DNA of 64,000 nucleotides, from assembly GCA_019828565.1 (NCBI GenBank), contig JAHDYR010000012.1, positions 558,001 through 622,000 on the forward strand, read 5' to 3'. This document shows, piece by piece, positions 1-50,057 of this stretch. Numbering within the stretch: the first letter of the stretch is position 1; each line of letters begins with the position of its first letter. The notes beneath the pieces are model-generated. The model had not been told where the DNA came from, searched no databases, and saw nothing but the letters and a program-made list of their open reading frames with translations. Source of the DNA: Carpediemonas membranifera BICM. Lineage: Eukaryota; Protista; Fornicata. Position numbers and translations under genes: made by a program.

Positions 1-1960
1 ACCTGGGTCGGCTTTGAGACCTTCCGCAAAGTTGCATGTCGACCCATCAACTGTATCACGTAGTTGATGTCGAGCCTGGCGCACTCCGCCCTAAAACTCT
101 CCAGCGCTCTACTCTGATCGCCATCGAAGGGACGCCGCACTGTCAATGCATTGCCCTTCTCGTTACGGTAAATGTGCGTGATCATCTTCTCATCAATGTT
201 GACAAGCATGGTCGGCTTCCCTGTCATCGAAGTCCACACTCTGATTGCTTCAACGCATGCCCATCTCGTCACTGTCCCGTCACTATTGACGTGCTCAGGA
301 AACAGCTCATCCAGAAGCTCTATCTCTGTCATCTTTGAGAATACGGCCATGGTCCTTGCGTGGGCGAGGAGCGTCTGGCGGTAAGCTGTCGCCTCATCCT
401 CAGCCTTGAGCTTCTGCGACAAGGGCAATTTGCGTCTGAACGCAGTAAATGTTCTCAGACCCGACATCATCATCAGGCAGTGAATGATGCAGTTCCCATA
501 ACCCAGGGTCGGATACGTAGGCCAACCTGAACTCGGAAGCCTTGTCGTGATGATCATGTCGAATGCCACAGTTCGGTTGTAGCGGGTTGGGTCAGACCTG
601 GCGTTGACCACTCTTCCGCTCTCCTCGGTTTCACCCTCCTCCTCTGCCCCACCCTCCTCGTCTGACTCGGCCTTCTCTTCCTCCTGCTCCTCCTCTGACT
701 TACTCTTGGCCGGAGAGTGCTGTGCGATGATATCCTTCATCTCAGGCGTAAAGTTGAGGTCTATGGGGTCTGCCAGGTCATTCGGAGCGGTTGCTTGTGC
801 AGACGCTGAGCAAACATCCTCGTCGTCGCCGGAGTTGCCGCCCTCGAGGTCGCCAAAGTGCAGCTCCTCCATCAACTCATCCGCCACTGGCTCCTCTTCC
901 TCCTCTGACTCGACCTCCTCCACTGGCTCCTCTTCCTCCTCTGACTCGACCTCCTCCACTGGCTCCTCTTCCTCCTCTGACTCCTCCTCCGAGTCCTCTG
1001 GCCTGGCCTTCTCGGGCGTGATGATGAGGGCCTTGCGCTTCACAGACATGGCTGCCTGCGCCTCGTCCGTATCGCGTCGGGGACAGGAAGTCCTGGAGAC
1101 TGTGCCAGACTGTGGCGGGATGGGGCTGCATGGGAGTGATGCATCCATGGACTTGTCAGCGTCATAGGCTGCCTCTCGCTCAGCCTGCTGCTGCAGAAGG
1201 CGTCGATGCAGCGTGATGACTTCCTCACTCTTTGCCGTCAAGCTCTTCCTCAACTGCTTGACTCTCTTCTTGTATCCTCGAACAATTTTGTGATAGTAAT
1301 CGATGATAGCGCCAGTACCTGGGGGGAGCAGGGGCGTACCTTCTCCCGCGGGGGTCTCCAACCATTCCAGGGCGATGATGTACTCTTCGAAGTACGAGCG
1401 GCAGGAGTGCTTCATGTAAGCAAGGTCTGCCTCCTTGCTGCGCACCCTGGCAACCATTGCTGTGACATGGTCGCGCACAAGCGCGTTGGTGGATGTCGCG
1501 TTGCGCCACGCCCGAACCTTGACACTCAGCGCCTCTTTTTCGATACGCGCGCCCTCATTCTCCTTGGCATACTCAGCCCTCTTGGAGTTCTTGAAGGCTG
1601 TGACAGCGGCCGACTCAAACGCCTTCATCTCCTTCTCCGTGAAGGTTGCCTCGATGTTCTCGTTCGAGGTCTTATCCTGCACCTGCTGAGACAGCAATGC
1701 CTCGAGTTCTGCCTTCTTCTCGCCCTGAATCTCGAAATATGAGCACAGGTGGTTAAAGTTGATCCCTATATAAACATTTGCACCAATTACGTACCGTTCT
1801 TGACGACTATATCGAAGATATCGTTCTCGTCGAGCAATTTGTCCCGAAGAACGGCACTCTTCGCCTTGTTTGTCTTCTTCTCCTTGAATTCGGTGATAAC
1901 GGCCTCAATCACATCATCTGAGGTGCTCTCGATCCACTCGTGAAGGAATTCGAACGTCAT
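1..1960 (-). CDS. OTU-like cysteine protease gene, copy 1 (coiled-coil N-terminus, acidic linker, C-terminal OTU-like domain; 3' end runs off window). Exon 1 1960-1795, 29-nt intron 1794-1766, exon 2 1765-<1
   Basis: Manual translation of the minus strand is open to base 1. Cys motif PTLGYGNCIIHCL and His motif QLMGRHAT. Removing intron GTACGT...TATAG joins ORF 1787..2059 in frame; the nearby TTT/TTC difference versus copy 2 is synonymous in that frame. Confidence 0.7.
884..985. repeat. About three 36-bp tandem repeats encoding the acidic linker (ESEEEEEPVEEV)
   Basis: tccactggctcctcttcctcctctgactcgacctcc repeated. Confidence 0.85.
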
Positions 1961-29800: not shown

Positions 29801-30191
29801 GGCTTATGGTGGAACAGTTGGCACCAGAGTCGAGTAAAGAATTGGCTTTGCGCTTGCCGAGACGAGCGTTCACAACAGGGAGGTCACCCGGGGAAATCTC
29901 CTTCGGGGCATTCAGGGCCGCGACGAATTTTGAATCCGAAACAGAATGAACACACCGGCGCTGATTTACTCCCTTCTTGGTAGGGCAGTAATCGGCCAGG
30001 TGTCCTGACTTGTGGCACTTAGGGCAGAATGCCTTCGGCTCAGCGCACTTGAAAGACGGATGCCCGGGCTTACCGCAGTTGTAGCACACGTACTGCTTCT
30101 TGGGCTTGTTCTGACGGTTGGGCTTCACTATGGGCTTCGAACCTTGGCGGTCGTGGCGCTCCGAGGGATCTTGGTGGTCACTGCGTGGCTC
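26832..30191 (-). CDS. Gypsy B Gag-Pol, 3' portion (two CCHC knuckles, protease, RT, RNase H, integrase, chromodomain)
   Basis: CYNCGKPGHPSFKC, LDSGA, YIDD, TDAS, IDT/SDGG/VERAN, YLVHWTGF. Confidence 0.95.
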   Translation of the reverse strand, partial: EPRSDHQDPSERHDRQGSKPIVKPNRQNKPKKQYVCYNCGKPGHPSFKCAEPKAFCPKCHKSGHLADYCPTKKGVNQRRCVHSVSDSKFVAALNAPKEISPGDLPVVNARLGKRKANSLLDSGANCSTISPRLVDEKRCKWISREPTQIHTVGDTRQAEGEVEVTLKLDPSPFTPHGCTLTLRAYVIDTAFDIIIGFPQMVSLGLLPSAIPSSSDPTEDSSETPPATKYIAQAMSELSQEARDRQSSILRRYASNFKERDAPSLLDPYDLVIKGNKVVNVRPYFVPPPKVPIVKEHVDTLLAKGFIEACQSDYSSPTIVVPKKGEKTRFVVDFREINSLTEPFDYPIPRIDEILAQLSRKRIFATLDLAAGYHQIALTERCRHLTAFRTVFGQYQYTRMPFGLRNAGAYFQRAMETAFEGLVGSSCIIYIDDIIVMGDSEAEYLDNLERVMARVEKMRLHLGRDKCQFGCAEVEFLGWIIHNGTVRISPQRVEDIAQLKVPKSTRGFQALHGFLNYFRDHIPFFAERVKPITDAMSGKTSSTSADVSKALEDAKAALCSADALAIFDATRPHVVMTDASAVGYGAVLLQDGKPVCYLSKAFNDVQSRWSVGEKEAYAIVSALQAWRKFLCWERFEIKTDHRNLLYMYKSVNAKVRRWADSIADLDFTISHVPGLDNGAADGLSRVFAMAKKTATTEQIHQAHLFADVHLSRRLTIERLRGQGLSVSRDAVDRVVSDCPICQVLDRPPVDQPDGLHTAVDTPLQRVAIDTMGPLPSCDGYSYITVMVDMCSRWTELVPAKNNSGKEAAEAFINTWVLRYGAPQVLQSDGGSEFHNGLFRRLSQEVGFQQHITTAYHPQANGMVERANQQVERILKARKFQLRNPNWLTHLPVARFIANSTPRIPTRLSPAEIMLGANITIPSTLYTTDASSAGITQSHRKAAEAAVQLAKSRISTMREEALARASSTRSEILSRYVLVKYAKRPPDKLSPGWRGPMRRVESVKRDGVTVGYIVQDLSQPRDGPTIKVDAARVRRFNPGTLSDTQIKELAAAATEEWYVDRISRSEGPDGSKRCPMSRRRYLVHWTGFEDSEATLQDYSFVKDLAALTEYLESEQAKIDGL

Positions 30192-30663
30192 AGTTCACCA
30201 ATGATTTCAGCAAAGTGGAAACACTTCGATCATGGATGGACAAGGACCAACAGGCCTGGCCTATATGGATAGGGCATTGCCCCATGGAGCTCAGAAGGAG
30301 CGGCCTTGGCCTCCTGTCTGAACATTCAAGGGTTGCTATCAGGGCATACCGCTGGGCGCGAGTGGGAGCTCCACGCCCATACCAAGGAATCAAAGTGTCT
30401 TCATGGAACGTATGTTTACAAGGAAAAGGAAAACAACCGTCGAGGGCCAGTGCTAGCACCGGCGGCTACATGGTTTTGTCAAGACCACAAGGAAGGAAGG
30501 GCAGCACAAAAGGGAAACAGGGGCCGTCGATAGAGGCTAAAAGGAGACTACGAACAAAGCAACAACAACTACACAGAAAGGCCCCGCTACTCAGAAAAGG
30601 GCGACGCATTTTTAGGACCGCGCCTTTTTGAAAGAATGGCCTATATAGTTCGGAGCATGGACA

Positions 30664-33600
30664 ATGGGAGAAACTGGAAGGCCTGGACGGAGACCTCACC
30701 CGGATATGTACATGTGGCCCGACTTTCGGACCCAAAAATTCCGACCCAGTTTATGGACTAGGAAAAGGGGAGAAATTTTGCACTCAACAATGCAGGTAGA
30801 AATACCGACAAGGATCAGGGATTCCACGCAGAAGCAGTGGGAGGACATCAGGGAACTACTGGACAGCTTCCTCGCTGAAAGGAACGATTCAAGGACTCTA
30901 CTTCTTCGTAGAACAGGTAAGTTTACAGGAAAGTCGCTCAATGCGAACTCCAAAGGACGCAAGGAAGTAATCATGAACGCCAGACGCATCCTCTTCGCAA
31001 CCGGCGTCACTGACAACAAGGACATCATCCTCAGGAACCCATGCGGCATCCACGGCCTCCGCGACCTTTTCTACATGCTCACAGAGGCGCTCAACCCCAG
31101 AGACGAGGAAGCAAAGGACATGGCACAGGCACTGGAGCCCAAGACGCTGAAAGCGGGCTTCACTGGCATGGCAAGATGGCCATCTGAGAAGGACATCGAG
31201 ACGGCGATCCTCAAGCCGAAGGAAGATGGGCCCATCGAATGGGATGTAGACAGGGACAGCGTCAAGAAGGCCGAAGGGTCGTTCATACTGGTATCAGGGG
31301 CTCATGGAGACGAGGCCGTAGAAGGCGTGCCTTACGACAAGGTATGGGATCCGGCAAACCAAGGCCCGGTCACCAGAGTGGCCTACGAGCAAGAGGACGG
31401 CAAGTACAGGGTCATCCTAGAGCTAAGCGACACGTCAGCATGGTCCATCAGCCGCTTCATGGAGGAGGCTAGGGACATCCTCAGGCTTCAGGCACCGGAG
31501 GCCCCGGCCATATGGCAGGCAGCATGGAACAAGTCAGGGATCTACCTGAAGGGCAGAACCAATATCCTGGGCGAAGGGGAGGAGACCCCCCTTAGCAACG
31601 AGCCGCCGTTCCGGAAGGTGAGGCTGGAAGTGCTCAAGGCCACCTCGGTCCGCAGCAATAGGGACGAACATGCCGATCTGGACAGGTCGTCCGCTAGCAC
31701 GGTCATCGACGGAGACGAGGAGCAACATGTCAAGGACAAGGAGGAACGACGCCAGCAGGCCACCATGCCCGGCAGAAGAAGCCTCGACGACAGCCTCCTG
31801 GAAGTGAACAAGGACATGGTCGGGGCCAACCAAGGCAAGATCGACCAGGACGAGGAGGTCGACTCAAACAAGGTCAGCAGCCAGCCGCCGAGGATGCCTA
31901 GAAAGGACAAGGAGAAACGACTGGTGATCGGAGCCATCGACTTCGAGTGCGCAGACCCTGGCGTCAAGAAGGCAGGGATCCCTGCCATCCCGGTTGAGGG
32001 CGGGATCGTACTCTTTGACCTCAGCACTGGGGACATTCTTGGACACGGGCATGGCCTGTATTACCAGGACATACCGGCAGCAAGCATGGACCAAGCGAGG
32101 TACACGGCATGGGCAGTGACGGGGCTGCCGCCGGCCACCTTCGTGGAGGTCGGGACGGGGCGGCCGCCGATCGAGTATGAGAAGCACATACATACTTTCA
32201 GGGACTGGGCCAACCGCCTGGCGGCTCAGCTGGCAAGGATCGAAAGGTCGGAGGGTTGGAAGATAATCATGTATGCAAAGGGGGTGGAGATGGAAAGCTT
32301 CCTCCTCACGAACCCCACAAATGGACTGGAGCAAGGAACCAGGGAATTCTTCCAAGCTAGGCTGGTGGACGAGAAGAAGCTACCAGAGATCCTGGAGAAC
32401 AACGGCAAGGAGGAGGCTGGCCAAAACCTCAGGGACAACCTCGACAAGGCCAACTACCTGGAAGCAGTAACAACATGGTCAAATGGATGGCAGAACAGGA
32501 GCGAGCCCAAGGGAGTCTGTCCGTACCACAGACACACCGCGGGTTGCTACCACTGTGGGTTGGCGGATACAGTAGTCTTCACAGCCAGGATCAGGGCCCT
32601 ATGCAAGGAGAGGATGAGCACCCCAGACGTCTACCACTACATGGGTAAGGCACTCGACAAGACCATGGAAGCAGTCGGGAAGGCGGAGCCGGGCATGGAT
32701 ATCATGGGAGGCCCGGAATTCGCGACAAGGAGGGACACCTTTGAGATCTTCGGCACGTACCCGATCGGGGACGCAAGGGACGTCAGCAGGGAAGTCGGCG
32801 ACAGGATCCTCGTAGTCCCGGACAACGGACACCGCTTCGGCATCGGCTTCGGGTTCGGGGAGGTTCTGTTGGGCATGAAGGGCATCTTACTGCCCCCCTC
32901 ACAATCATGGACAACGAAGGTGTACTGGAGAGAAGCCCGCTATGGACCATCATGGAAAGAGCCACGGCTAACCAGCTCCGCATGGTACGCGTCAGGAAGG
33001 GCCTAGGGGCAGCAAGGGAGGAGGACATCATAACCATGGCCATGCTATACGAGTGGTGGCCCTCGAAGGAGGCTACGGCTCATCAAGGAGTCTGGGGCTG
33101 CGACGACCTAGCAGAGAGCCTCAGGGACTATGAGAAGGTCATAGTCAACGTCAAGGCCCCCAGGAACAGGGGTAGGATCACCCTAGGGGCGAGCTTCATC
33201 CCGAGAGACTGGGGGCATGGTCAGGGTCAGCGAGGCTGGGACCATCCTAAGCCGCATGCGCAAGGAAGGGGCCAGACTAGTCTCGGCAGCTATCCCGGAC
33301 GAGCCCAGAGCCAACACAGTCAATGTCCCAGGCATCACGTATGTCCCCACCATCGACGGAAAGTCCGAACAGCCATACCAAAGTAGGTTCTTCGACAACG
33401 GCCTGGAGGAAAAGGCGAGGCGGATTAGCACCAGGATGGTGGGCAGGCACTTCGGCCAGGACGCGGATCAAGGACATCACGACCAGCATGGAGACAGGGA
33501 AGAGGACAGAAGGGTAGGACACGGAGCCGGCGGTAGAGCTGGTGTCAGAGCTGACGACAGAACCGGCGACAGAGCTGGTAACATGAACAGGACCTCGGAT

Positions 33601-34167
33601 CGTAACCACGGAGGAGACGACAGGGAGAGACAGGACAACACGGGAACGCAGATGAGAGGCTCGTTCAGCGGGAACACCTGGGCCGGTAGAGGCTCAGAGG
33701 GAGGCATGGACAACAGCAAGGATCACTCTTCCTCCACGACGCTCAAGCGCAAGGAGGGCAGCACGAGTAGGATCATGGACTCGGACAGCGGAAAGAGAAG
33801 CAGGCACGAAGAGGACATGGACTGGGAGTCTGGAAGCAGACAGGCAACCGGCATGGACTCGGAGAAGCTGCGGCTCCGAAAGCAGTTGGCAGAGGCGCAA
33901 CAAGAGATCTCAGCGCTCAAGTCTGCCCGACTCATGCAAGAGCAAGGCCACGGAAGGTTGGTGCTCTCCGGCGTCGCGACTAAGCCCAGCAAGGAGAAGC
34001 CCACGATCCCCCGGCACAAGCACAAGAAGGCTAAGAAGGCCAAGCAGATCTCACCCATGGACCTGATGACCCAGTTCATCACGGTAATGCAGAGTCTACA
34101 AGGACAGCAAGTGAGTCAGGCCGAGGACAGCTGCAGCGGCAGTGGGGAGTCCACGGAGGAGGAGTAA
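30664..34167 (+). CDS. LINE ORF1 copy 1 with Maelstrom-like DEDDh nuclease domain (~31921-32600); two indels at homopolymers (~32898, ~33213)
   Basis: Colinear with the intact ORF 38114..40954. Confidence 0.8.
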
Positions 34168-34499
34168 GGACATGGTAAAGCAGTATTCTTTCAAGGAACA
34201 AGCAACATTTTCTTTATAATTCACAAGCCCTGGCTCCCACCCAGGGCCCGGCATTAGCTGAAATGCACTGCCGGTAGGCTGTAGCGGCAGCCAAAGGGGG
34301 GGTCACGTCATATCGTCCCCCTCCTAAGTACCCTGCCCGAAGAATGGAAGGTCACCAGGTGGTAACAAGGTTGGCCTGACAAGGGTCACCGAGACCGGCA
34401 TCTAGGCCCCTTGTTAGGACAAGGATAGCAGGAGAGGAGCGGGAAGCTGGGGCTCCCAAATTCTGGGAATTCGCAGGATAAGGAAACAGGACAAAGGCA

Positions 34500-36695
34500 A
34501 TGGTAACCTACAAGATACTTAGTCTGAACACAGAGGGACACATAGGAAGAGGAAAGGACTTCACGGCGTCTATGGCAACGGCGATTCAGCTAAGGTTGAA
34601 GGACATAGAGGCAGTACTCATACAAGAGACATGGAGAACGGCGAATACGAGGGTTCATTGCTTCATGGACCTTGACTACGCACTAGCAGGGAGGGAGACG
34701 GAAGAGGACCTGGTCTTAGCCAACGAAAAACGAAAGGCGGATGTCAAAAGTCAGCACCGCATCAACCGACAACTAGGCATAGCAGGCAATGACGAACCTG
34801 CGCCAAGATGGAAGGGAACAAGGGAAGGCATCGGCACGAGAGTGAGCCCACACGCAACTGCAAAGTGGGACATCGGCATAACGGACAGCCTATCGGGAAG
34901 AGTGCAAGCCAGCATAATGAGAACCGGCAGGGACATACTAGTCATCAACGTGTATGGCCCTCCATCCGGCCACAGCAAGCAGGAGAAGGATGGATTCAGG
35001 GACACTATACAGAAGATCATGGACATGAAAGGGAGCATGGAGGCCATAATTATGGGAGACTGGAACATCGACCCAGGCCAGATGGAAAGATCCACCCGGT
35101 GGAAGGATATGATGGAGAAGCACAGGCTCAAAGCCATCATACCCAAGTCTGGGACGCTCACATCAGGAACATCAACCCCGGACTTTGCAGTGACAACACC
35201 AGGAATCCAGGGGGCGGAGATTGAGGTGGTAGAGTCTCAGAAGGTCGGGGTATGGGGCTCAGCACACAATGGAATCACACTAGCATGGAAGGAACAACGG
35301 TACTATGGCAGAAGTGAGCGAGACGTGGCTCTGGCCATACCCGAGGTGCACACCTGGCCCATGAAAAAGAAGGAGGGGCCAGTCACAGTCTCAAAGCTGA
35401 ACAGGATCAAGAGCTCGGACCAATGGGAAGAGACTATAAGAGCATGCATGGGCGACCCAGTGAACAACAGGGGAGCAAAGGCAAGGGACAAAGTGTTCGG
35501 GAACGGAGTGTGGAGCGAACTCCAGCGAACCCCATGGACAGAAATAGACATTTGGGAAGGCCTCACGGCAGGACTACGGGAACTGGCAAAGGTTTACAAC
35601 AGCTTCAAGGTGGAATAGAAGCATGTCATGAACCCCTGACTCCAGGACCGGGAAGGGATGGACAAGGAATCAGCCATGGACCACCCTCGCTGGGTGCTAA
35701 GCTCCTGGGATCAGTGAGGAAAGGCCCCACGTATCCCGGTAGCCAGGAACCAAAGCAAGGGAAGGAACGACTGCAAGGAATTAACAGGAAGGACAGACCA
35801 GAAATAAGAAAGAAAGGACATGCAACAAGGACAGAGCAAGGATAAGGTCAAGGAAATCCATATTATGGAATGGCTGGCAGTCAAAAGGATAGTCAACTAC
35901 AGGGACCAGGATATACCAGTCAGAAACAGAGAATGGGGGCGGGGCACGGTTATGTGGGAAGCTAGGGAGAGAGTGCAGCATCTACTGGAGGGCACCAGAG
36001 AGGGAGCCCCTAAACCAGCGCTACTGGATTATGGCATGGAAACGATCAGGGAGGGGGTGGATGAAGCGGTGCAAAAGCCGTACGGCACTAGGACTAATGG
36101 AAATCATGGGGACAAGGAAATTAAGCAAGTGTCTGCAAGGTAAGCCTACGGTAGACCGAAAGGCTGGGAAGGGGGCAAAAGCAGGGCGGAATGGAAGAGA
36201 ATTGTATCCATTGCAGCCAATGTCAGCCCATCCCCATCGTCGGCAGAGAGAGGGGAGGGCCCTATGAGAGCCATCACAGAGCTGGCCCAAGGCGCTGACC
36301 TGAAGAGAGAAATTAGCAGACTATGCCCCCTATGCTCGGAGGAGTCGGAGGTGAGCCTGTTCTACAGGATCATTAGGGAAAAGCCAGGACCAGCAAGGAA
36401 GCAGGAAATGATCAGGGAGTGGGCAGAGGGCCAGAGGCTAGGATCGGCAGCGCACATAATCTGTGAATGCCCGGCAGTAGACAGGGGAGAAGCTTGGACA
36501 AAGCTGTGGACAGCAGCGAAGCACAAAACTAAGGACTTGGAAGTAAGGCAGGGCCCCCAGGGCGAATGGTACCAGGAAAGACCCATCCTAGAATTACAGC
36601 AACTAATAATATGGGGCTCGGAGGACATTTGGGAAGGCCTCACGGCAGGACTACGGGAACTGGCAAAGGTTTACAACAGCTTCAAGGTGGAATAG
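34500..36695 (+). pseudogene. LINE ORF2 copy 1: APE endonuclease, internal deletion of RT, C-terminal CCHC
   Basis: SLNTEG, IQETW, NVYGP, MGDWN; jumps at ~35548 to 3'-end sequence, then back at ~35865. Confidence 0.88.
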
Positions 36696-37595
36696 AAGCA
36701 TGTCATGAACCCCTGACTCCAGGACCGGGAAGGGATGGACAAGGAATCAGCCATGGACCACCCTCGCTGGTGCTAAGCTCCTGGGATCAGTGAGGAAAGG
36801 CCCCACGTATCCCGGTAGCCAGGAACCAAAGCAAGGGAAGGAACGACTGCAAGGAAAGAACAGGGAAGGACAGATCAGAAATAAGAAAGAAAGGACATGC
36901 AACAAGGACAGAGCAAGGATAAGGTCAAGGAAATCCATATTCATATGGTTGCACCACTCGTTGGGACCCCAAGGAAACTGCAGGGACTGGCCACGGGGGT
37001 CGGAGGGGCACAGGTGCCCCTGCCGCCCTTGTTAACGACATGGGAAACCAAGGACATGTAGTGCAAGCGAAATGTTGTAAGGGGTAACAGGACAACCAGG
37101 CCTAGTGCCTGGGGCTGCCGCTGACCCACGCCACCTAACCGGGGTAGACAGCATGGACTTAGTCACTTTCCCCGCCTTCGGGTAGGCTTCTTAACAGAGT
37201 CGAGGGGGCATGGAATTGGGGAACCGGACAGACGAGAGGGTGCCGTGGCTGAACGGCTCTACAAGGACTGCAGGGAAGCAAGGAGTGTCATAGTCAAGGT
37301 TCTGCAGGACGATCCTGCCTGTCAATGCCCCGAGGACAGACCCCCAGGCTCCCCGGATAGTTGCCGGACTTTCAGGGAGACAGGAAAGCATATTTGCACG
37401 GAGATGGCCGCAGGGCCTCTGGGGCGATTGGAATCGGCTTTCCGCGGAGACAGTAGCACCGAAAGCCCAAGGCAAACGCTGCTGACCAGTTTGCCACGGG
37501 AAATAGGCAGTACCCCGGGGCACTCAGCTCCAAGACAACGGGAAACAAGCTCAGTCCGGGGTCAGAATCCAAGCACCATAAATTTCTTTCTTTCT

Positions 37596-38063
37596 TCACT
37601 GCGTGGCTCGCGCTCGTGAACATGTGGAGCTCTGGGACGGGCAGCAGCGGGGGAGAAGGAGTTCACCATCTCTTGCGACTCCTGTAGGTCGCGTGACATT
37701 GCCATGACTTTCGGCATGATCGAGGGGATGTCGAGGCCTTCTGCGAGCTCCTTGACCTTGTACATGATCGTGTTGGATCCTTGCACGCGGAAGCATCTGC
37801 AGTACGTCTCTTTGAGCACATCCTCAGGTACATCTGGATTGACTAACAGCTGGAGCGCCTTGAACTTCCGATTGACGTTATTGACCTCGACGGGGTCGAA
37901 GGTCTTGGCGCGTAGACGGAAAAGATCGAGCTGAGCGGTGGATCTGCTGGGACGCAGTACGCTGCCTAGGCGCTTGAGGATTCGTAGATCGCTGAAGTTG
38001 CGCTTTTGACGGCGGCGCTCGGTAGTTGCCATCAGTAACGGTACGTAATCATCGTCTTCGGAG
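37596..38063 (-). pseudogene. Middle fragment of Gypsy B gag between the two LINEs
   Basis: In frame with both neighbours after TSD removal. Confidence 0.88.
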
Positions 38064-38113
38064 GGTCGTTCATACTGGTATCAGGGGCTCATGGAGACGA
38101 GGCCGTAGAAGGC

Positions 38114-40954
38114 GTGCCTTACGACAAGGTATGGGATCCGGCAAACCAAGGCCCGGTCACCAGAGTGGCCTACGAGCAAGAGGACGGCAAGTACAGGGTC
38201 ATCCTAGAGCTAAGCGACACGTCAGCATGGTCCATCAGCCGCTTCATGGAGGAGGCTAGGGACATCCTCAGGCTTCAGGCACCGGAGGCCCCGGCCATAT
38301 GGCAGGCAGCATGGAACAAGTCAGGGATCTACCTGAAGGGCAGAACCAATATCCTGGGCGAAGGGGAGGAGACCCCCCTTAGCAACGAGCCGCCGTTCCG
38401 GAAGGTGAGGCTGGAAGTGCTCAAGGCCACCTCGGTCCGCAGCAATAGGGACGAACATGCCGATCTGGACAGGTCGTCCGCTAGCACGGTCATCGACGGA
38501 GACGAGGAGCAACATGTCAAGGACAAGGAGGAACGACGCCAGCAGGCCACCATGCCCGGCAGAAGAAGCCTCGACGACAGCCTCCTGGAAGTGAACAAGG
38601 ACATGGTCGGGGCCAACCAAGGCAAGATCGACCAGGACGAGGAGGTCGACTCAAACAAGGTCAGCAGCCAGCCGCCGAGGATGCCTAGAAAGGACAAGGA
38701 GAAACGACTGGTGATCGGAGCCATCGACTTCGAGTGCGCAGACCCTGGCGTCAAGAAGGCAGGGATCCCTGCCATCCCGGTTGAGGGCGGGATCGTACTC
38801 TTTGACCTCAGCACTGGGGACATTCTTGGACACGGGCATGGCCTGTATTACCAGGACATACCGGCAGCAAGCATGGACCAAGCGAGGTACACGGCATGGG
38901 CAGTGACGGGGCTGCCGCCGGCCACCTTCGTGGAGGTCGGGACGGGGCGGCCGCCGATCGAGTATGAGAAGCACATACATACTTTCAGGGACTGGGCCAA
39001 CCGCCTGGCGGCTCAGCTGGCAAGGATCGAAAGGTCGGAGGGTTGGAAGATAATCATGTATGCAAAGGGGGTGGAGATGGAAAGCTTCCTCCTCACGAAC
39101 CCCACAAATGGACTGGAGCAAGGAACCAGGGAATTCTTCCAAGCTAGGCTGGTGGACGAGAAGAAGCTACCAGAGATCCTGGAGAACAACGGCAAGGAGG
39201 AGGCTGGCCAAAACCTCAGGGACAACCTCGACAAGGCCAACTACCTGGAAGCAGTAACAACATGGTCAAATGGATGGCAGAACAGGAGCGAGCCCAAGGG
39301 AGTCTGTCCGTACCACAGACACACCGCGGGTTGCTACCACTGTGGGTTGGCGGATACAGTAGTCTTCACAGCCAGGATCAGGGCCCTATGCAAGGAGAGG
39401 ATGAGCACCCCAGACGTCTACCACTACATGGGTAAGGCACTCGACAAGACCATGGAAGCAGTCGGGAAGGCGGAGCCGGGCATGGATATCATGGGAGGCC
39501 CGGAATTCGCGACAAGGAGGGACACCTTTGAGATCTTCGGCACGTACCCGATCGGGGACGCAAGGGACGTCAGCAGGGAAGTCGGCGACAGGATCCTCGT
39601 AGTCCCGGACAACGGACACCGCTTCGGCATCGGCTTCGGGTTCGGGGAGGTTCTGTTGGGCATGAAGGGCATCTTACTGCCCCCCTTCACAATCATGGAC
39701 AACGAAGGTGTACTGGAGAGAAGCCCGCTATGGACCATCATGGAAAGAGCCACGGCTAACCAGCTCCGCATGGTACGCGTCAGGAAGGGCCTAGGGGCAG
39801 CAAGGGAGGAGGACATCATAACCATGGCCATGCTATACGAGTGGTGGCCCTCGAAGGAGGCTACGGCTCATCAAGGAGTCTGGGGCTGCGACGACCTAGC
39901 AGAGAGCCTCAGGGACTATGAGAAGGTCATAGTCAACGTCAAGGCCCCCAGGAACAGGGGTAGGATCACCCTAGGGGCGAGCTTCATCCCGAGAGACTGG
40001 GGCATGGTCAGGGTCAGCGAGGCTGGGACCATCCTAAGCCGCATGCGCAAGGAAGGGGCCAGACTAGTCTCGGCAGCTATCCCGGACGAGCCCAGAGCCA
40101 ACACAGTCAATGTCCCAGGCATCACGTATGTCCCCACCATCGACGGAAAGTCCGAACAGCCATACCAAAGTAGGTTCTTCGACAACGGCCTGGAGGAAAA
40201 GGCGAGGCGGATTAGCACCAGGATGGTGGGCAGGCACTTCGGCCAGGACGCGGATCAAGGACATCACGACCAGCATGGAGACAGGGAAGAGGACAGAAGG
40301 GTAGGACACGGAGCCGGCGGTAGAGCTGGTGTCAGAGCTGACGACAGAACCGGCGACAGAGCTGGTAACATGAACAGGACCTCGGATCGTAACCACGGAG
40401 GAGACGACAGGGAGAGACAGGACAACACGGGAACGCAGATGAGAGGCTCGTTCAGCGGGAACACCTGGGCCGGTAGAGGCTCAGAGGGAGGCATGGACAA
40501 CAGCAAGGATCACTCTTCCTCCACGACGCTCAAGCGCAAGGAGGGCAGCACGAGTAGGATCATGGACTCGGACAGCGGAAAGAGAAGCAGGCACGAAGAG
40601 GACATGGACTGGGAGTCTGGAAGCAGACAGGCAACCGGCATGGACTCGGAGAAGCTGCGGCTCCGAAAGCAGTTGGCAGAGGCGCAACAAGAGATCTCAG
40701 CGCTCAAGTCTGCCCGACTCATGCAAGAGCAAGGCCACGGAAGGTTGGTGCTCTCCGGCGTCGCGACTAAGCCCAGCAAGGAGAAGCCCACGATCCCCCG
40801 GCACAAGCACAAGAAGGCTAAGAAGGCCAAGCAGATCTCACCCATGGACCTGATGACCCAGTTCATCACGGTAATGCAGAGTCTACAAGGACAGCAAGTG
40901 AGTCAGGCCGAGGACAGCTGCAGCGGCAGTGGGGAGTCCACGGAGGAGGAGTAA
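38114..40954 (+). CDS. LINE ORF1 copy 2 (5'-truncated) with Maelstrom/arenavirus-NP-like DEDDh nuclease (~38708-39390) and coiled-coil/basic C-terminus
   Basis: AIDFEC...IPVEGGIV...YAKGVEME...CPYHRHTAGCYHCGLAD. Confidence 0.8.
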   Translation: MPYDKVWDPANQGPVTRVAYEQEDGKYRVILELSDTSAWSISRFMEEARDILRLQAPEAPAIWQAAWNKSGIYLKGRTNILGEGEETPLSNEPPFRKVRLEVLKATSVRSNRDEHADLDRSSASTVIDGDEEQHVKDKEERRQQATMPGRRSLDDSLLEVNKDMVGANQGKIDQDEEVDSNKVSSQPPRMPRKDKEKRLVIGAIDFECADPGVKKAGIPAIPVEGGIVLFDLSTGDILGHGHGLYYQDIPAASMDQARYTAWAVTGLPPATFVEVGTGRPPIEYEKHIHTFRDWANRLAAQLARIERSEGWKIIMYAKGVEMESFLLTNPTNGLEQGTREFFQARLVDEKKLPEILENNGKEEAGQNLRDNLDKANYLEAVTTWSNGWQNRSEPKGVCPYHRHTAGCYHCGLADTVVFTARIRALCKERMSTPDVYHYMGKALDKTMEAVGKAEPGMDIMGGPEFATRRDTFEIFGTYPIGDARDVSREVGDRILVVPDNGHRFGIGFGFGEVLLGMKGILLPPFTIMDNEGVLERSPLWTIMERATANQLRMVRVRKGLGAAREEDIITMAMLYEWWPSKEATAHQGVWGCDDLAESLRDYEKVIVNVKAPRNRGRITLGASFIPRDWGMVRVSEAGTILSRMRKEGARLVSAAIPDEPRANTVNVPGITYVPTIDGKSEQPYQSRFFDNGLEEKARRISTRMVGRHFGQDADQGHHDQHGDREEDRRVGHGAGGRAGVRADDRTGDRAGNMNRTSDRNHGGDDRERQDNTGTQMRGSFSGNTWAGRGSEGGMDNSKDHSSSTTLKRKEGSTSRIMDSDSGKRSRHEEDMDWESGSRQATGMDSEKLRLRKQLAEAQQEISALKSARLMQEQGHGRLVLSGVATKPSKEKPTIPRHKHKKAKKAKQISPMDLMTQFITVMQSLQGQQVSQAEDSCSGSGESTEEE

Positions 40955-41285
40955 GGACATGGTAAAGCAGTATTCTTTCAAGGAACAAGCAACATTTTCT
41001 TTATAATTCACAAGCCCTGGCTCCCACCCAGGGCCCGGCATTAGCTGAAATGCACTGCCGGTAGGCTGTAGCGGCAGCCAAAGGGGGGTCACGTCATATC
41101 GTCCCCCTCCTAAGTACCCTGCCCGAAGAATGGAAGGTCACCAGGTGGTAACAAGGTTGGCCTGACAAGGGTCACCGAGACCGGCATCTAGGCCCCTTGT
41201 TAGGACAAGGATAGCAGGAGAGGAGCGGGAAGCTGGGGCTCCCAAATTCTGGGAATTCGCAGGATAAGGAAACAGGACAAAGGCA

Positions 41286-44200
41286 ATGGTAACCTACAAG
41301 ATACTTAGTCTGAACACAGAGGGACACATAGGAAGAGGAAAGGACTTCACGGCGTCTATGGCAACGGCGATTCAGCTAAGGTTGAAGGACATAGAGGCAG
41401 TACTCATACAAGAGACATGGAGAACGGCGAATACGAGGGTTCATTGCTTCATGGACCTTGACTACGCACTAGCAGGGAGGGAGACGGAAGAGGACCTGGT
41501 CTTAGCCAACGAAAAACGAAAGGCGGATGTCAAAAGTCAGCACCGCATCAACCGACAACTAGGCATAGCAGGCAATGACGAACCTGCGCCAAGATGGAAG
41601 GGAACAAGGGAAGGCATCGGCACGAGAGTGAGCCCACACGCAACTGCAAAGTGGGACATCGGCATAACGGACAGCCTATCGGGAAGAGTGCAAGCCAGCA
41701 TAATGAGAACCGGCAGGGACATACTAGTCATCAACGTGTATGGCCCTCCATCCGGCCACAGCAAGCAGGAGAAGGATGGATTCAGGGACACTATACAGAA
41801 GATCATGGACATGAAAGGGAGCATGGAGGCCATAATTATGGGAGACTGGAACATCGACCCAGGCCAGATGGAAAGATCCACCCGGTGGAAGGATATGATG
41901 GAGAAGCACAGGCTCAAAGCCATCATACCCAAGTCTGGGACGCTCACATCAGGAACATCAACCCCGGACTTTGCAGTGACAACACCAGGAATCCAGGGGG
42001 CGGAGATTGAGGTGGTAGAGTCTCAGAAGGTCGGGGTATGGGGCTCAGCACACAATGGAATCACACTAGCATGGAAGGAACAACGGTACTATGGCAGAAG
42101 TGAGCGAGACGTGGCTCTGGCCATACCCGAGGTGCACACCTGGCCCATGAAAAAGAAGGAGGGGCCAGTCACAGTCTCAAAGCTGAACAGGATCAAGAGC
42201 TCGGACCAATGGGAAGAGACTATAAGAGCATGCATGGGCGACCCAGTGAACAACAGGGGAGCAAAGGCAAGGGACAAAGTGTTCGGGAACGGAGTGTGGA
42301 GCGAACTCCAGCGAACCCCATGGACAGAAATAGGCAACAGGACCAGGAAGGAAAGGATGAAAGAGGAGCTGGAGAAATACTGGGGAGAGCGCAGGGCCAA
42401 ATGGGTGGCCGACATCAGCAGAAGTGCAAAAGGGGGTATAGGGCCTCAAGGGCCTCAGTGGAAGCTGCCATCAGAAGGTGGTGGTGTGACAACCAATACA
42501 AGGGAATGCCGGAGAGCCTCCTCAAGGACGGAGTGATAACCACGGACAAGGCGGCCATCAGCGAGATCCTCTTGCAACAGTATGCTAGAGTCAGCAGAGG
42601 CAGGGAACCCACCTGGAAGACATGGAGGGGCAGGGACGGAAATGAGTTCAAGGAAAGCGAGGTCAAAGCCGCAATCAAAAAGGATCAGGAGGGACACCGC
42701 ACCAGGGCCTGACCTCACATCTGGAGACATGCTGAGAGAGCTGGATGAGAAAGGCCTTAGGGAAGTGACGAGGCTCATCAACAGGGTCTACAGGGAGGGC
42801 GACGTACCCAAAGCATGGAAGTATGCCACAGTGTCGGCCATACACAAGACAGGGAAGCCAAGGGTCAAGCCGGAATCATATAGACCAATATCCTTGACAC
42901 CACTGCTGTACAGGGTCTATGGTAGATTGCTCAAGATACGTCTGGAAGCAGCAACGAAAAGGTTCATACCAAGAGAACAGGCTGGTTTCCAGTCAGACAG
43001 GGACGTCATCCAGCAGATACAGTACATTGTGCAGCGGCACCAGGAGGGGGGTGAGACCACGTCAATCTTTCTGGACATCGAGAAGGCATATGACACGGTA
43101 CCAAGGGACATTCTCATGGATAAGCTACAGGGTATGGGGGTGGAGGAGCACTTGATCAGGGCAATTCAAGGCACAATAAAGGAAACCTGGATATCAGTCA
43201 AGGGGGCAAAGGCATGGGAAAGAACCAACAGGGGAGTTAAGCAAGGGTGCGTCCTGGCACCGACACTGTTTGTGCTGTTCATGGCTAACTGGCCCCACCT
43301 GGCCAGAAAGAAAATCAAGGGAGAACGGTACGACATCAGAGAACCGCCAAGGACCACGAGCCACCTCAGCGACCGACTACCGGCAGCACTTACCATGTTT
43401 GTGGATGACACTGCGGTCACAGGGAGCAAACCGGAGCATAGCCAGATGGTCGCCAACATAATGGTGGACATAATCAGAGAGCATGAAATGAGGGTGAACG
43501 CCCAGAAGAATGTAATGATTAGCGTGGACAGAACAGCCCTAGTCAGGATCGAGGGGGTAACACTACTGCCAGAGAAGGAGGCGAGATACCTGGGATTATG
43601 GATCGCAAGTGGGAAGGACCCTATGTCGGCCTGCATAAGGCGGAAACAGGAGCAGAGCGAAAGGTACAAGAGACTGGTGAGATGGGCAGGGTGGACCAGG
43701 GCAAACATGCCAGCACTAGCGAGCAGGCTACTACTGGAAATATATATATGGCCCAGGATCCTCTTCGGAGTCGAGGTGTGGGGGAACGCACCGGGAGGTA
43801 GAAGGATCTGGAATGACTGGCAGGGAATCATGGCAGGAACAGGACCGGGAGGGGGCGCAGCCATGAGGCTGATGAATGGATGGGTGGACCTCCAGGCACA
43901 CATGGAATGGCTGGCAGTCAAAAGGATAGTCAACTACGGGACCAGGATATACCAGTCAGAAACAGAGAATGGGGGCGGGGCACGGTTATGTGGGAAGCTA
44001 GGGAGAGAGTGCAGCATCTACTGGAGGGCACCAGAGAGGGAGCCCCTAAACCAGCGCTACTGGATTATGGCATGGAAACGATCAGGAGGGGGTGGATGAA
44101 GCGGTGCAAAAGCCGTACGGCACTAGGACTAATGGAAATCATGGGGACAAGGAAATTAAGCAAGTGTCTGCAAGGTAAGCCTACGGTAGACCGAAAGGCT

Positions 44201-44729
44201 GGGAAGGGGCAAAGCAGGGCGGAATGGAAGAGAATTGTATCCATTGCAGCCAATGTCAGCCCATCCCCATCGTCGGCAGAGAGAGGGGAGGGCCCTATGA
44301 GAGCCATCACAGAGCTGGCCCAAGGCGCTGACCTGAAGAGAGAAATTAGCAGACTATGCCCCCTATGCTCGGAGGAGTCGGAGGTGAGCCTGTTCTACAG
44401 GATCATTAGGGAAAAAGCCAGGACCAGCAAGGAAGCAGGAAATGATCAGGGAGTGGGCAGAGGGCCAGAGGCTAGGATCGGCAGCGCACATAATCTGTGA
44501 ATGCCCGGCAGTAGACAGGGGAGAAGCTTGGACAAAGCTGTGGACAGCAGCGAAGCACAAAACTAAGGACTTGGAAGTAAGGCAGGGCCCCCAGGGCGAA
44601 TGGTACCAGGAAAGACCCATCCTAGAATTACAGCAACTAATAATATGGGGCTCGGAGGACATTTGGGAAGGCCTCACGGCAGGACTACGGGAACTGGCAA
44701 AGGTTTACAACAGCTTCAAGGTGGAATAG
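41286..44729 (+). CDS. LINE ORF2 copy 2: APE endonuclease, reverse transcriptase and CCHC finger, with several frameshifts
   Basis: APE motifs; YRPISL, QAGF, FLDIEKAYD, GVKQG, MFVDD, RYLG; CPLC...HIICEC. Confidence 0.92.
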
Positions 44730-45642
44730 AAGCATGTCATGAACCCCTGACTCCAGGACCGGGAAGGGATGGACAAGGAATCAGCCATGGACCACCCTCG
44801 CTGGTGCTAAGCTCCTGGGATCAGTGAGGAAAGGCCCCACGTATCCCGGTAGCCAGGAACCAAAGCAAGGGAAGGAACGACTGCAAGGAAAGAACAGGGA
44901 AGGACAGATCAGAAATAAGAAAGAAAGGACATGCAACAAGGACAGAGCAAGGATAAGGTCAAGGAAATCCATATTCATATGGTTGCACCACTCGTTGGGA
45001 CCCCAAGGAAACTGCAGGGACTGGCCACGGGGGTCGGAGGGGCACAGGTGCCCCTGCCGCCCTTGTTAACGACATGGGAAACCAAGGACATGTAGTGCAA
45101 GCGAAATGTTGTAAGGGGTAACAGGACAACCAGGCCTAGTGCCTGGGGGTACACCACCCATGCCCTGACCCACGCCACCTAACCGGGGTAGACAGCATGG
45201 ACTTAGTCACTTTCTCCGCCTTCGGGTAGGCTTCTTAACAGAGTCGAGGGGGCATGGAATTGGGGAACCGGACAGACGAGAGGGTGCCGTGGCTGAACGG
45301 CTCTACAAGGACTGCAGGGAAGCAAGGAGTGTCATAGTCAAGGTTCTGCAGGACGATCCTGCCTGTCAATGCCCCGAGGACAGACCCCCAGGCTCCCCGG
45401 ATAGTTGCCGGACTTTCAGGGAGACAGGAAAGCATATTTGCACGGAGATGGCCGCAGGGCCTCTGGGGCGATTGGAATCGGCTTTCCGCGGAGACAGTAG
45501 CACCGAAAGCCCAAGGCAAACGCTGCTGACCAGTTTGCCACGGGAAATAGGCAGTACCCCGGGGCACTCAGCTCCAAGACAACGGGAAACAAGCTCAGTC
45601 CGGGGTCAGAATCCAAGCACCATAAATTTCTTTCTTTCTTTC

Positions 45643-45845
45643 TAATCATCGTCTTCGGAGTTACCGGCCTCGTCGATGCATTGCGAGACATAGTCAGCGA
45701 TAGATGGATCGACGAGTTCGGAGATATCGGCCTTACCGCCGAGGGAACGGTACGTTTGGAGGTGAAGGTAAAAATCAAGCAACGCCTTCATTGAAGGGTC
45801 GCGGAATAGCGGGGGAACCGCTTTTTCTTTGTTCTTAAATGTCAT
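45643..45845 (-). pseudogene. 5' fragment of Gypsy B gag (ATG at 45845)
   Basis: ...GNSEDDD continues as YVPLLMATT at 38045; reconstructed ORF is 3999 nt. Confidence 0.88.
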
Positions 45846-45958
45846 GATGAAAGGGGAATACTAGTATTGTGGTCTGTCAAGACTTAGAAGAACTTTTAGT
45901 AAAAGCAAAGAAGAGAGGGTTTGACCCTGCTGTGGTAAATATGGCAATAATAAATATA

Positions 45959-47335
45959 TCAACTATGTAAACAATGGGTAGGACCCTGACAGTGGTTCAC
46001 GGTGCGTGCCCTGCAGAGAGGGCAGACGTCAAATCCGGGCGTGAATGTGGGGAGGCCCAGGTGATTGCGGAAGATGGGGGCAACAGCGGCATCGGTTACC
46101 GAGCGCCCAAGAGAGGTCGGGTCGACCATCATGAACGACCGAACGACGTTGGGCGAGACGGCGGCACTCACAGAGAGCTTGGTGGCAATAGATTCCTCAA
46201 CGAGGCGAACCAAGTTCTTCTGCGTGTGGTCGGCGTCAAGAGCCTTCACATCGTCCAAGCCACTAGGCCAGTTCGACGGCGTGTTGAGCTGGGGCGGGAG
46301 ACACTTGATGGCACCCGTCACGCTGTCAGGTGAGCGTGTAACACCCAGCCCTGCCAGTTGTCTCGTGGCCGCGAGGAACGCGGGAGCCCACACGACTGAT
46401 GGCATTGCCAGCGCAAGCCCGCGTCTTTCTACCGGCATACTCAGGCGGAGAGCAAAGTCGTCATCGACCTCAGCCTCGCTCGACAGGATTCGGAGGATGG
46501 CCGGGACCGCCTCTTTCTTCTCAAATCCGAGCTCAGCCTCGTAGAGACCGTTGCCGACTCCACCCGTTGCGGGGGGAACGTTACGGAAGAAGTGCTCCCA
46601 CTTTGTGAGCGCACAATACTTCGCAATGATCAACGCAGGGGCAGTTGCCTCCGGCCCCTCCTTGGCCACCATCTCTCCGGCAGCGTTAAGGAGTTGCATC
46701 ACGCGACAATTGACCTTGGCCAACTCACCCATCGCATGAGCAGCGGACCCAACCGGAACGCCCACGAGGTTTAGGCTGCGTCTTCTTGGGACGCCTCCCG
46801 AGGTGTTGCCGTCGGTAACGTCTCTGTGCGCCACAACGCACTTCGACTTGTTGAGCCGCAGGCCGACTTCGAGGAACTTCTCCCTCGCGATCTCGACAAG
46901 GTTGTTAGCCTCTCGGCCGACACCGGGCGTCTGCAAAGGCCGATCAGTCGTGGCGACAAGATCGTCTTGGTACGCTTGGAGGTGCCAACCCGGGAACGCC
47001 TCGCGCAGAACGTCCAGAATGGGCTTGATGCCCAGGCTGAACAGAATAGGGGACAGGGGATCTCCTTGATGTATGCCCTCAGCTGACCTTATCACTCCTC
47101 CTGACGTGGAGAATAGGAGCCCTTGGCGATACATCGTAGACAGGTAGGGCATGAGAGCAGGCATGTAAGCGCGTACCACGTCGAACATGAACGCCCTAGA
47201 TAGGCATCCATAAGCGTTCGATAAGTCGAGGGAGACAACAGTCCCTCCCTCCTCGTAGACCCTGGTCACGCTGTCACTCAGCCTCTCCAGGCCGCACTTC
47301 TCCCCCACCCCATACTGATCCTTGAGGGTCCGGGA
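45959..47335 (-). pseudogene. Non-LTR retrotransposon RT fragment, CRE/SLACS-like; 5'-truncated and cut at the zinc knuckle before the expected REL endonuclease
   Basis: QYGVGEKCG, LDLSNAYG, GIHQGDPLSP, AYQDD, RLSMPVERRGL, CPLC...THC. Confidence 0.8.
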
Positions 47336-47814: not shown

Positions 47815-50057
47815 TTAGAAGAGTGGCTCGGCGTACATGCGGTCGATCTCCCCGGCAAACTGGGTGACGAACTCCGCCCTGACGGCCTTGAGGCTAGGGG
47901 TGACGAGCCCCGTGTCGGGGGTCCAGTCGAACGCAGTCACAGCAATGCTCTTCGGCATCTCGAACGGCCTCAGCGCACCCTGGGCCTGTTCTCGCATCCT
48001 GCCGAGCAGCTCTCGCTTGAACGAGTCGGCCTGCATGTCCATGGGTGTCGCCCCGGCCGGAAGAAGACCGTCCGCGATGCAGCGGTCCTTATCAACGGCG
48101 CAGATGACGACCGGGAAGGGCTCCGTGCCGCGGGCGAGCGTGACGTGGGCAGACGTGTACGGCGTCTCGATGGCCGCGTCAATGGCGTCGAGGCTGATGA
48201 ACTCGCCCTGACTCAGTTTCAAGACGTTCTTGAGCCGCCCGATGAGGCGGAAGTTGACGAACCCGTCGACGGTGACGGCCTCGGCGACGTCGCCTGTGTG
48301 GAACCAGCCATCCTCGTCAATAGCCTCGGCCGTGAGCTCGGGCCGCTTGTAGTAGCCCTTGAAGATGGCGTGGCCCCGCATGCAGAGCTCGCCCCTGGGA
48401 TTGGCCCCGCTGGCCTCGTATCTGCCGGGGACGGACACCAGCTTGAGCTCCGTGTTGGGCGTCTGAGCCGCCATGTGGCCCGCGGACGTCTCGTACTTGA
48501 CGGACGAGGCGCCCACGGATTGGGTTTCGGTCAACCCGAAGCCTTGGACGCAGTCATCGAGACAGAGGGCCTCCTTGAGGAATATGAGAACGTTACCGTC
48601 GATAGGGGCAGAGCCGACGAAGATGTTGCGGATTCTACCACCGAGGGCGCCCCTGAACTTCGAATAGACCAGGCGCATGCCCAGAGGCGACGGCTTCACG
48701 GGCTCGCGGCGGAGGTTCTCCTCGAGCACCTGCCTATGGCGCAGGGCGAGGTAGCGGTTGAGGAGGTACTTGGAGACACCGGTGGCCTCCTCGATCTTCT
48801 GAGTCATCGAGTTGTACATCCTCATGAGCACCCGTGGCACACACACAAGCAGGGTCGGGGCGAGGGCCTGTAGATCGGACGTCAACAGCCTGATGTCGCC
48901 GGAGTAGTAGCCGACCGCGTCGCCCCGCCAGAAGGCCATGTGCTCCACAGACCGCTCGAACACGTGGGCCAGGGGTAGGTACGACAGGAGCGTGTCATAG
49001 CGGGGCTTGCCGGGCTTGATCGAGCTGGAGTCGCGGGGTCCGTTGCCCATGATGCTGCTCGCGACAACAATGGCCGTCACGAGGGCGTCGGCGCGGCAGG
49101 GGACACCCTTAGGGCGGTCGGTGGTGCCAGACGAGAACAGGATGGAGAAGGTCTCCTCGGGCTTCCAGCTGTGGTCGGGCTGGGTCGGGGCGGCGTTGCC
49201 CCTAGTGAGAGCGACGTTCCATTCGACGATGGCGGGGCCCTCGGGATAGGGTGCCGTCGAGTCGAGTATCGCCGTGAAGTGGGCCATGTCCGGGGGGATC
49301 GGCGTGTTGTTGACGTCCACGGCGGTCAGGATCGACGGCATCGACGGGGCCGAGGAGAAGACCTCCGAGCGGATCTCCTCCATGGCGAAGACCGCGCTGT
49401 CGTCCTTGTTGCGGAGGTCGATGTTGTGGCGTTCGCAGTACAGTGCTGCCGTGCTGGACAGCAGGCCGTGGTGGTCGACCGGGTCGAACGAGACGACCAG
49501 CTCGAGCGAGGGGATGACGTCCTTGAGTGAGAGCATGAGGGCAGTGTGGCGCTTGTCGACGAAGGCGGCCTTGATCTCGGTCAGGTCGCATATGTACATA
49601 AGGTTATCGATGCCCAGGGCGTCGTAGAGGGGCACGGAGACGAGGCCAGCGGCCTGGCAGGCGAGGTCAGCAAGCATCCACTCGACGCGGTTGCGGCCGT
49701 AGATGACGACGTTGTCGCCGGGCCTTAGCGTCGTAGTGCTGAGGAAGTCGCGCATCTGGTCGACGTAGGTGGCGGTCTGGCGGTACGTGAGCCATTCGAA
49801 TTCACCGTCTGTGTTAGCTGCAGGGAGGGGGACGAACAGTGGTGGATGTCGAGCTTCTTCCGGGCACCAACCATAGGACGATCGGCGTAAAGCTCCACGG
49901 ACTCTCTGTAGGACTTCAGGGGGTTGTAGTTAGCCCAATCGTAGGACTTCATGCGGTCAGTTACGACGTACTCGTTCGATTCGCCGGTAAGACCGCGAGG
50001 GTGTACAGGCAGGATGTATTCTGTGGGTTTCTCAGCGTTAGAAATGTTTTCAGACAT
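47815..50057 (-). CDS. Long-chain acyl-CoA synthetase (ACSL/LACS family); 29-nt intron 49837-49809
   Basis: FSSGTTDRPKG, YLPLAH, GFGLTET, GWFHTGD; intron GTTCGT...CTAACACAG joins HH-Y-GEFEWLTY. Confidence 0.93.

Follow-up and report, generated by a model that had tools for sequence, protein, structure and literature searches.

The window analysed here (64,000 nucleotides of Carpediemonas membranifera BICM: assembly GCA_019828565.1, contig JAHDYR010000012.1, positions 558,001 to 622,000 of the forward strand) carries two near-identical copies of a long interspersed nuclear element (LINE) whose first open reading frame, ORF1, contains a domain that is very probably a homologue of the protist type of Maelstrom (MAEL), judging from its motifs and its modelled fold. 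The domain is most likely closer to MAEL than to the nucleoprotein (NP) of arenaviruses, with its active-site residues intact, and we suggest (at a probability of about 0.4) that it acts as a 3'-5' exoribonuclease directed against RNA interference (RNAi), blunting the silencing of the element by its host. Maelstrom-family proteins are host factors that silence transposons, while the forms with an intact active site are protist RNases and a viral immune antagonist. A MAEL-type domain with intact active-site residues, fixed in many LINE families, would constitute an additional ORF1 type and would place the MAEL fold on the transposon side of the host-transposon conflict.

In the second LINE copy the domain spans 38708..39390, within an ORF1 (38064..40954) that is open from its truncation point through to the stop (all features of the LINE are on the forward strand), and the DNA of the domain in the first copy (31921..32603) is identical. 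The motifs picked out in the initial annotation were all found in both copies: in the second, IDFE begins at 38723 (D at 38726, E at 38732), PVE at 38777 (E at 38783), AKGVEME at 39062 (last E at 39080) and CPYH at 39305, followed after seven residues by HCGLAD at 39338 (D at 39353), and in the first they begin, in the same order, at 31936, 31990, 32275, 32518 and 32551. The pattern CxxH-x(2-20)-HC[AG]LxD was produced by none of 20,000 shuffles of ORF1. The open reading frame 38114..40954 of the initial annotation is incomplete as an ORF1, since it owes its start to the 5' truncation of the second copy; the real start lies in the first copy, at the ATG at 30664 or at 30790, where the relative P0002 begins, and the domain therefore occupies approximately residues 415-655 of a full ORF1 of about 1,130-1,170 amino acids. 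The full-length span in the first copy (30664..34167) comprises an N-terminal domain, an acidic linker, the MAEL-type domain, a third domain and a low-complexity and probably coiled-coil tail, and carries two single-base indels relative to the second copy (at 32899 and 33211), both downstream of the nuclease domain. The regions flanking the nuclease (30790-31900 and 32630-33300) are 41-61% conserved among the families within C. membranifera and have no Pfam match.

Both copies are true target-primed LINE insertions. The first (30192..37595) lies between perfect 14-bp target-site duplications (TSDs) at 30178-30191 and 37596-37609, and the second (38064..45642), 5'-truncated at about 38064, between perfect 18-bp TSDs at 38046-38063 and 45643-45660; both 3' ends consist of (TTTC)n. 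When the window was compared with itself, 31272-35547 matched 38059-42333 at 99.9%, and the LINE family has been active recently. With an ORF2 that encodes an apurinic/apyrimidinic endonuclease (APE) and a reverse transcriptase (RT), together with TSDs, a simple-repeat 3' tail and 5' truncation, the element is a non-LTR (long terminal repeat) retrotransposon of the APE type. The first copy carries the ORF1 start and the upstream leader and, by self-BLAST, is internally rearranged and without the RT core.

The domain extends well beyond these two copies. A word-based protein search recovered 4 relatives among 1839 candidates, and a five-row profile, run with HMMER over all 1.84 billion representatives, gave 17 matches at E<=0.001, 15 of them genuine; P0022 and P0023 were discarded as spurious repeat proteins. 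Eight of the genuine relatives come from C. membranifera and seven lie on short contigs, and the closest proteins are C. membranifera annotations (P0011 is 98% identical over 45% of the domain). One of 462 pattern matches in metagenome contigs was confirmed (L001) and none of 33 in viral contigs was confirmed as a related locus; a phage tblastn search with the domain gave none. The LINE context is direct for both window copies, for L001 (ORF1 followed by the start of an APE-type ORF2) and for P0021, and for the remaining relatives it is inferred from their common ORF1 architecture. L001, the one DNA of the family compared from outside the window, is 38% identical in protein. P0021 (C. membranifera J8273_6114) has the MAEL-type domain and an APE domain on one predicted chain, the APE domain being only 24% identical to that of the window LINE over 104 residues; it may represent a LINE family with a single ORF, or else an artificial join in the gene model.

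Residue conservation was read from a 14-row alignment (A3) that excludes near-duplicates and fragments (P0005-P0007, P0010, P0011 and P0024), the apparently mis-joined P0018 and the two spurious proteins. The nine rows that span most of the domain are 23-53% identical, save one pair at 68%. With residues counted from 38690, the predicted catalytic set consists of ExoI D-x-E (D13 in 9 of 10 rows, E15 in 10 of 11), an ExoII acid (E131, 12 of 12) and ExoIII H-x4-D (H217 in 11 of 12, D222 in 12 of 12), all 90-100% conserved, and the predicted zinc residues are invariant where present (E32 in 10 of 10; C206, H209 and C218 each in 12 of 12). Overall 27 of 235 columns reach 90%, and 11 of the 44 D/E/C/H columns do so, all nine key residues included; as the rows are kin, these figures are descriptive and carry no formal probability. 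The nine key residues are thus kept at 90% or more across diverged families, and no other part of ORF1 is as well kept as the domain when set against the distant P0004 (39% vs. 7-26%). Because it is spread over diverged families, retains its key residues and is better kept than the rest of ORF1, the domain appears to be old within the LINE lineage, under constraint and not a one-off capture; it was probably gained once, before the families diverged, and then retained by selection.

AlphaFold2, run with A3, gave a model with a pLDDT (predicted local distance difference test) of 80.3 and a pTM (predicted template-modelling, TM, score) of 0.80 that has the strand and helix order of DnaQ; a single-sequence model (pLDDT 33.6), with weak RNase H-like matches (Z at most 4.9), was set aside. 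Foldseek found 36 PDB matches at E<=0.001, and every one of the 42 rows listed is either a nuclease of the DEDD superfamily or a protein containing such a domain; among these rows the highest query-normalised TM scores are those of Drosophila and Bombyx MAEL (0.54, 0.54 and 0.52). In the VIA structural search, which covered 48,161 chains, Bombyx MAEL 9NHC scored Z 11.6 (186 aligned residues, root-mean-square deviation, rmsd, 4.2), Drosophila MAEL 4YBG Z 10.8 (193, 4.4) and MAEL 5AF0_C Z 11.7 (189, 3.8), the last with the longest alignment among the 50 rows of its listing, while the NPs of LCMV (Z 9.1; 151, 3.8) and Lassa virus (Z 8.6; 152, 4.0) scored lower. With Z of 11-12 over 160-190 residues of a pLDDT-80 model, the RNase H-like DnaQ fold, and with it the predicted DEDDh fold of the ORF1 domain, is solid. 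If the register is taken from the alignment end-points (residue pairs not being printed), on the assumption that the stretches from the ends to the motifs are free of gaps, the 5AF0 alignment (7..239 to 116..323) places D13 on Bombyx D122 and C206, H209, C218 and D222 on C290, H293, C302 and R306 (numbers from PMC4408791), with the same spacing of +3, +9 and +4, and the 3R3L alignment (5..233 to 381..544) places D13, E15, H217 and D222 on Lassa D389, E391, H528 and D533. The DEDDh fold and the Glu-Cys-His-Cys (E-C-H-C) residues in Maelstrom register, both proposed from the letters of the DNA, are thus supported; of the likeness proposed to MAEL and arenavirus NP together, the MAEL part was strengthened and the NP part became more distant.

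The subtype was judged by eye from the published MAEL alignment (PMC2628886, supplement 1). In the Entamoeba MAELs ExoI reads DFE, strand 2 has P-x-E and strand 3 a His, and the C-terminal motif is C-x2-H-x7-HCGLxD; across this last motif 11 of 17 positions of ORF1 agree with one E. dispar row, the spacing being the same and ungapped. At ExoII the trypanosome MAELs have KG-x2-MD where ORF1 has KG-x2-ME, and the tetrad is therefore D-E-E-D. By the same mapping, the window copy has five of the six residues of the EHHCHC set and P0012 all six; the first MAEL His corresponds to H50, present in 8 of 11 rows. The fold matches, the conservation of the nine residues and the motif matches to Entamoeba and trypanosomes together point to a protist-type MAEL homologue, whose nearest kin are likely Entamoeba MAEL and trypanosome RIF4 and not, as the initial annotation had allowed, arenavirus NP. 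EhMael (EHI_192630) and TbRIF4, as protist MAELs, share with ORF1 the DEDDh and E-C-H-C residues, and by eye ORF1 has the spacing C-x2-H-x7-HC-x-L-x-D in common with Entamoeba and the ExoII motif KG-x2-M-[DE] in common with trypanosomes; unlike the ORF1 domain, which lies inside a LINE, they are host genes. Metazoan Maelstrom (4YBG, 5AF0 and 9NHC) shares the fold, the longest structural alignments and the zinc-ligand register, but it possesses an HMG box and is without the catalytic acids, whereas the ORF1 domain keeps the acids and ORF1 has no HMG match in Pfam. The C-terminal exonuclease of arenavirus NP (3R3L, 4O6H) has the same DEDDh and ECHC layout and is likewise an RNase encoded by a parasite, countering host RNA sensing, but it has the lower structural score and the ORF1 domain has no viral context. 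Two formal assignments were rejected: a metazoan Maelstrom orthologue or PF13017 member (no PF13017 or HMG match, catalytic acids kept) and an arenavirus nucleoprotein (no Arena_ncap match in Pfam, no viral contig, position inside a LINE). PDB sequence searches with the domain and with 5-row and 14-row profiles gave nothing meaningful, and scans of Pfam, PHROGs and NCBIfam gave no relevant family for the domain.

What such a domain might do for a LINE can be approached through its characterized relatives. EhMael, which has the DEDDh and ECHC motifs, is a Mg/Mn-dependent RNase that degrades single-stranded (ss) RNA (PMC4408791). TbRIF4, with its 3'-5' exonuclease activity, processes siRNA duplexes, and RNAi against retroposons depends on it; the DEDDh residues of RIF4 were noted in the MAEL screen of Zhang (2008), as cited in PMC3359990, and because of that tie we take RIF4 to be the trypanosome MAEL. 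Lassa NP digests double-stranded RNA (PMC3429428) and suppresses innate signalling (PMC7968707). It is likely that the ORF1 domain, too, is a catalytically active, Mg/Mn-dependent RNase, and since the characterized active relatives all act on RNA, two of them on duplexes, we favor by analogy an RNase that blunts silencing. In this scheme ORF1p would coat the RNA of the element and the nuclease, close to the ribonucleoprotein (RNP), would remove siRNA duplexes or antisense-paired strands, working inward from the 3' ends, so that an anti-transposon enzyme of the host would be turned against the host; the structural E-C-H-C zinc site would support such a predicted MAEL/RIF4-like exoribonuclease within ORF1. 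A more speculative proposal is that the LINE lineage captured the MAEL/RIF4 homologue of its own host as a silencing suppressor, a retrotransposon counterpart of the arenavirus NP exonuclease, and that such elements may also have moved MAEL domains between cellular genomes and viruses. The domain offers a third data point on the origin of MAEL and arenavirus NP, as well as a small enzyme for probing whether retrotransposons encode nucleolytic silencing suppressors.

A number of observations weigh against this reading. The ExoII acid is Glu and not Asp. At the second MAEL His the family mostly has Thr, as in the window copy, with His kept in 3 of 11 rows; D13 is Tyr in P0003, and H217 is Leu in P0015. 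Neither the domain nor its relatives had a Pfam match to Maelstrom (PF13017) or to arenavirus families even at E<=10, and the five-sequence profile retrieved no named MAEL among the 1.84 billion representatives. The language-model feature matches were unnamed viral and bacterial exonucleases (0.95, Nucleocytoviricota being the commonest) and Rv2179c-like clusters. MAEL ranks only 12th, 21st, 30th and 35th by Foldseek E-value, and by VIA Z generic DEDDh enzymes tie or top it (DinG exonuclease, Z 12.3, 166 aligned, rmsd 3.4; 3'hExo, Z 11.8, 178, 3.9); on the model, structure alone leaves MAEL tied within Z 1 with these enzymes, and it is the match by eye with the published alignment that led us to choose MAEL over a generic DEDDh nuclease. 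As to function, an RNase inside the RNP of the element itself would need tight control. The chief weak point is RNAi itself: we found no literature report of Dicer or Argonaute in Carpediemonas, with 0 matches in 10 of the 11 supplement files of PMC8516963, and some related diplomonads are described as lacking both (PMC11437800); if the host has no RNAi, the anti-silencing role fails.

The alternative that survives best, only a little less likely than the anti-silencing role, has the same active MAEL-type nuclease working in cis: it would trim away poly(A) or read-through sequence, leaving the (TTTC)n end ready for target-primed reverse transcription, or would remove the RNA template or 3' flaps at integration. 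The two insertions share their 3' end point, in a short (TTTC)n tail without poly(A), and ORF2 has no RNase H domain in Pfam; it is because of these two features that we rank cis-processing close behind the anti-silencing role. Microsatellite-tailed LINEs that have no such nuclease exist (CR1/L2), which counts against it, as does the lack of a significant 3' stem-loop that could stop an exonuclease (z -0.27 and -0.63; neither the 3'- nor the 5'-end RNA folds of the LINE are significant). P0021, whose predicted chain holds the domain together with the APE endonuclease, speaks for the cis role, but as a gene model it may have been wrongly joined. The ssRNA degradation by EhMael (PMC4408791) and the 3'-end processing proposed for the DEDDy ORFs of rotifer retroelements (PMC5408684) are both consistent with such trimming.

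Rather improbable, in our view, is a non-catalytic RNA-binding module that would resemble metazoan Maelstrom and stand in for the RRM or CCHC domains with which other ORF1s bind RNA. Some ORF1 domain must bind RNA, since ORF1 has no RRM, CCHC, PHD or esterase match (Pfam, E<=0.1; at this profile level a remote RRM may escape in the two flanking domains), and Bombyx MAEL binds ssRNA without cutting it (PMC4408791); the Glu at ExoII and the two family members that each lack one catalytic residue would also fit. Metazoan MAELs, however, have lost their catalytic residues, whereas the five catalytic positions here are kept at 90-100% among proteins only 23-53% identical. We are still more doubtful of a generic DEDDh exonuclease, whether ERI1-, RNase T- or DnaQ-like or of phage or giant-virus origin, in which a similar zinc site arose independently and which perhaps acts on DNA ends. 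The best Z and E-value matches are such enzymes, the feature matches given above point the same way, and the BFVD matches are phage and giant-virus exonucleases, but none of the 50 BFVD rows exceeds a query TM of 0.50, and the residues match protist MAEL at ExoI, P-x-E, the first His and ExoII, and throughout the zinc/ExoIII motif; among the DEDD structures compared in PMC7968707, moreover, ECHC is described solely for MAEL and arenavirus NP. Capture from the nucleoprotein of an arenavirus-like RNA virus is very improbable: the DEDDh and ECHC layout and the 3R3L register agree with it, NP has the highest identity among the VIA rows (17-18%), the language-model features of P0021 put an arenavirus NP cluster a weak second to DEDDh_C (0.90, with only 136 features shared) and LINE ORF1s have captured viral helicases before (PMC5563155), but NP scores below MAEL in Z (8.6-9.1) and aligns over about 35 fewer residues, none of the 33 viral-contig pattern matches was confirmed, and there is no arenavirus Pfam match.

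Nuclease capture by retroelements is already known, but our searches of the open-access literature gave no MAEL-type domain in a LINE. The DEDDy ORF3 of bdelloid LTR retrotransposons and Terminons is a retroelement-borne DEDD nuclease, also DEED, and some of these ORF3s carry a Cys-His-Cys motif that the authors compare to that of Maelstrom; they are, however, RNase D-like, form a separate ORF3 and occur in LTR and Penelope-like elements (PMC5408684), whereas the present domain is of the DEDDh/MAEL class and lies inside a LINE ORF1. The esterase of type IV ORF1s and the viral SF1 helicase are enzyme domains similarly recruited into ORF1, the helicase having been proposed as a silencing suppressor (PMC5563155), but they are different enzymes, and the term exonuclease is absent from the main texts of PMC4120745 and PMC5563155. 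Surveys of ORF1 give RRM, CCHC, PHD and esterase types, with no exonuclease, DEDD or Maelstrom in their main texts (PMC4120745, PMC5203782). In keeping with the original impression that no such ORF1 had been described, we found no report of a MAEL or DEDDh domain in LINE ORF1s or transposons in the open-access literature, although Repbase and subscription papers, outside that search, may hold one.

ORF2 of the second copy (41286..44729) encodes the APE endonuclease, the RT and a C-terminal Cys/His motif (Pfam Exo_endo_phos_2, 4.8e-7; RVT_1, 6.1e-33). By tblastn it has about four frame changes relative to its intact relatives P0025 and P0026, to which it is 38-39% identical; among shallow contigs from a sequencing run one lacks the base at 42677, too thin a basis for calling these frameshifts assembly errors. 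In an RT tree of 41 rows (the window RT and the best 40 of 120 listed matches), the window RT clusters solely with P0025 and P0026 (support 100); the tree holds no named references and so assigns no LINE clade. The nearest solved structures to this ORF2 in the PDB are L1 ORF2p and R2. The 3' untranslated region (44730..45642, about 0.9 kb) ends in (TTTC)n without poly(A), and no AATAAA lies close to the 3' end of the LINE. In the first copy the ORF2 remnant (34500..35618) is an APE endonuclease that runs on in frame into the final 23 ORF2 codons: at the junction 35547-35865 the sequence passes from the endonuclease to those codons (42333 to the equivalent of 44658), continues for 318 bp, returns to the equivalent of 43902 and then runs on to the tail. 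Either a template jump from a deleted RNA or an error of assembly may lie behind this rearrangement.

The source protist is intron-poor, and the surroundings of the LINE are rich in other elements. Both copies sit in the gag-like frame (two CCHC knuckles and a protease motif) of a single Ty3/gypsy element on the reverse strand, now divided into 29595-30191, 37596-38063 and 45643-45960, with insertion points about 450 bp apart. Nested Ty3/gypsy ORFs for protease, RT, RNase H and integrase occupy 20522-29594 (reverse strand), with a weak chromodomain hint at the end of 26832-29594, and a further RT fragment at 45959-47188 (reverse strand; RVT_1, 1.1e-11) is unmatched to the window LINE in the self-comparison. 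Between 949 and 19399 lie segmental repeats (0.25-1.7 kb long and 98-99% identical), a tandem array rich in purines (13644-14111) and long ORFs with no Pfam match, for example 16877-19399 (840 amino acids). Ordinary host genes follow at 47815-63529: an AMP-binding enzyme, a dual-specificity phosphatase (with a weak gelsolin match), a pyruvate kinase, a RING protein, a metallophosphoesterase and a UBR-box E3 ligase.

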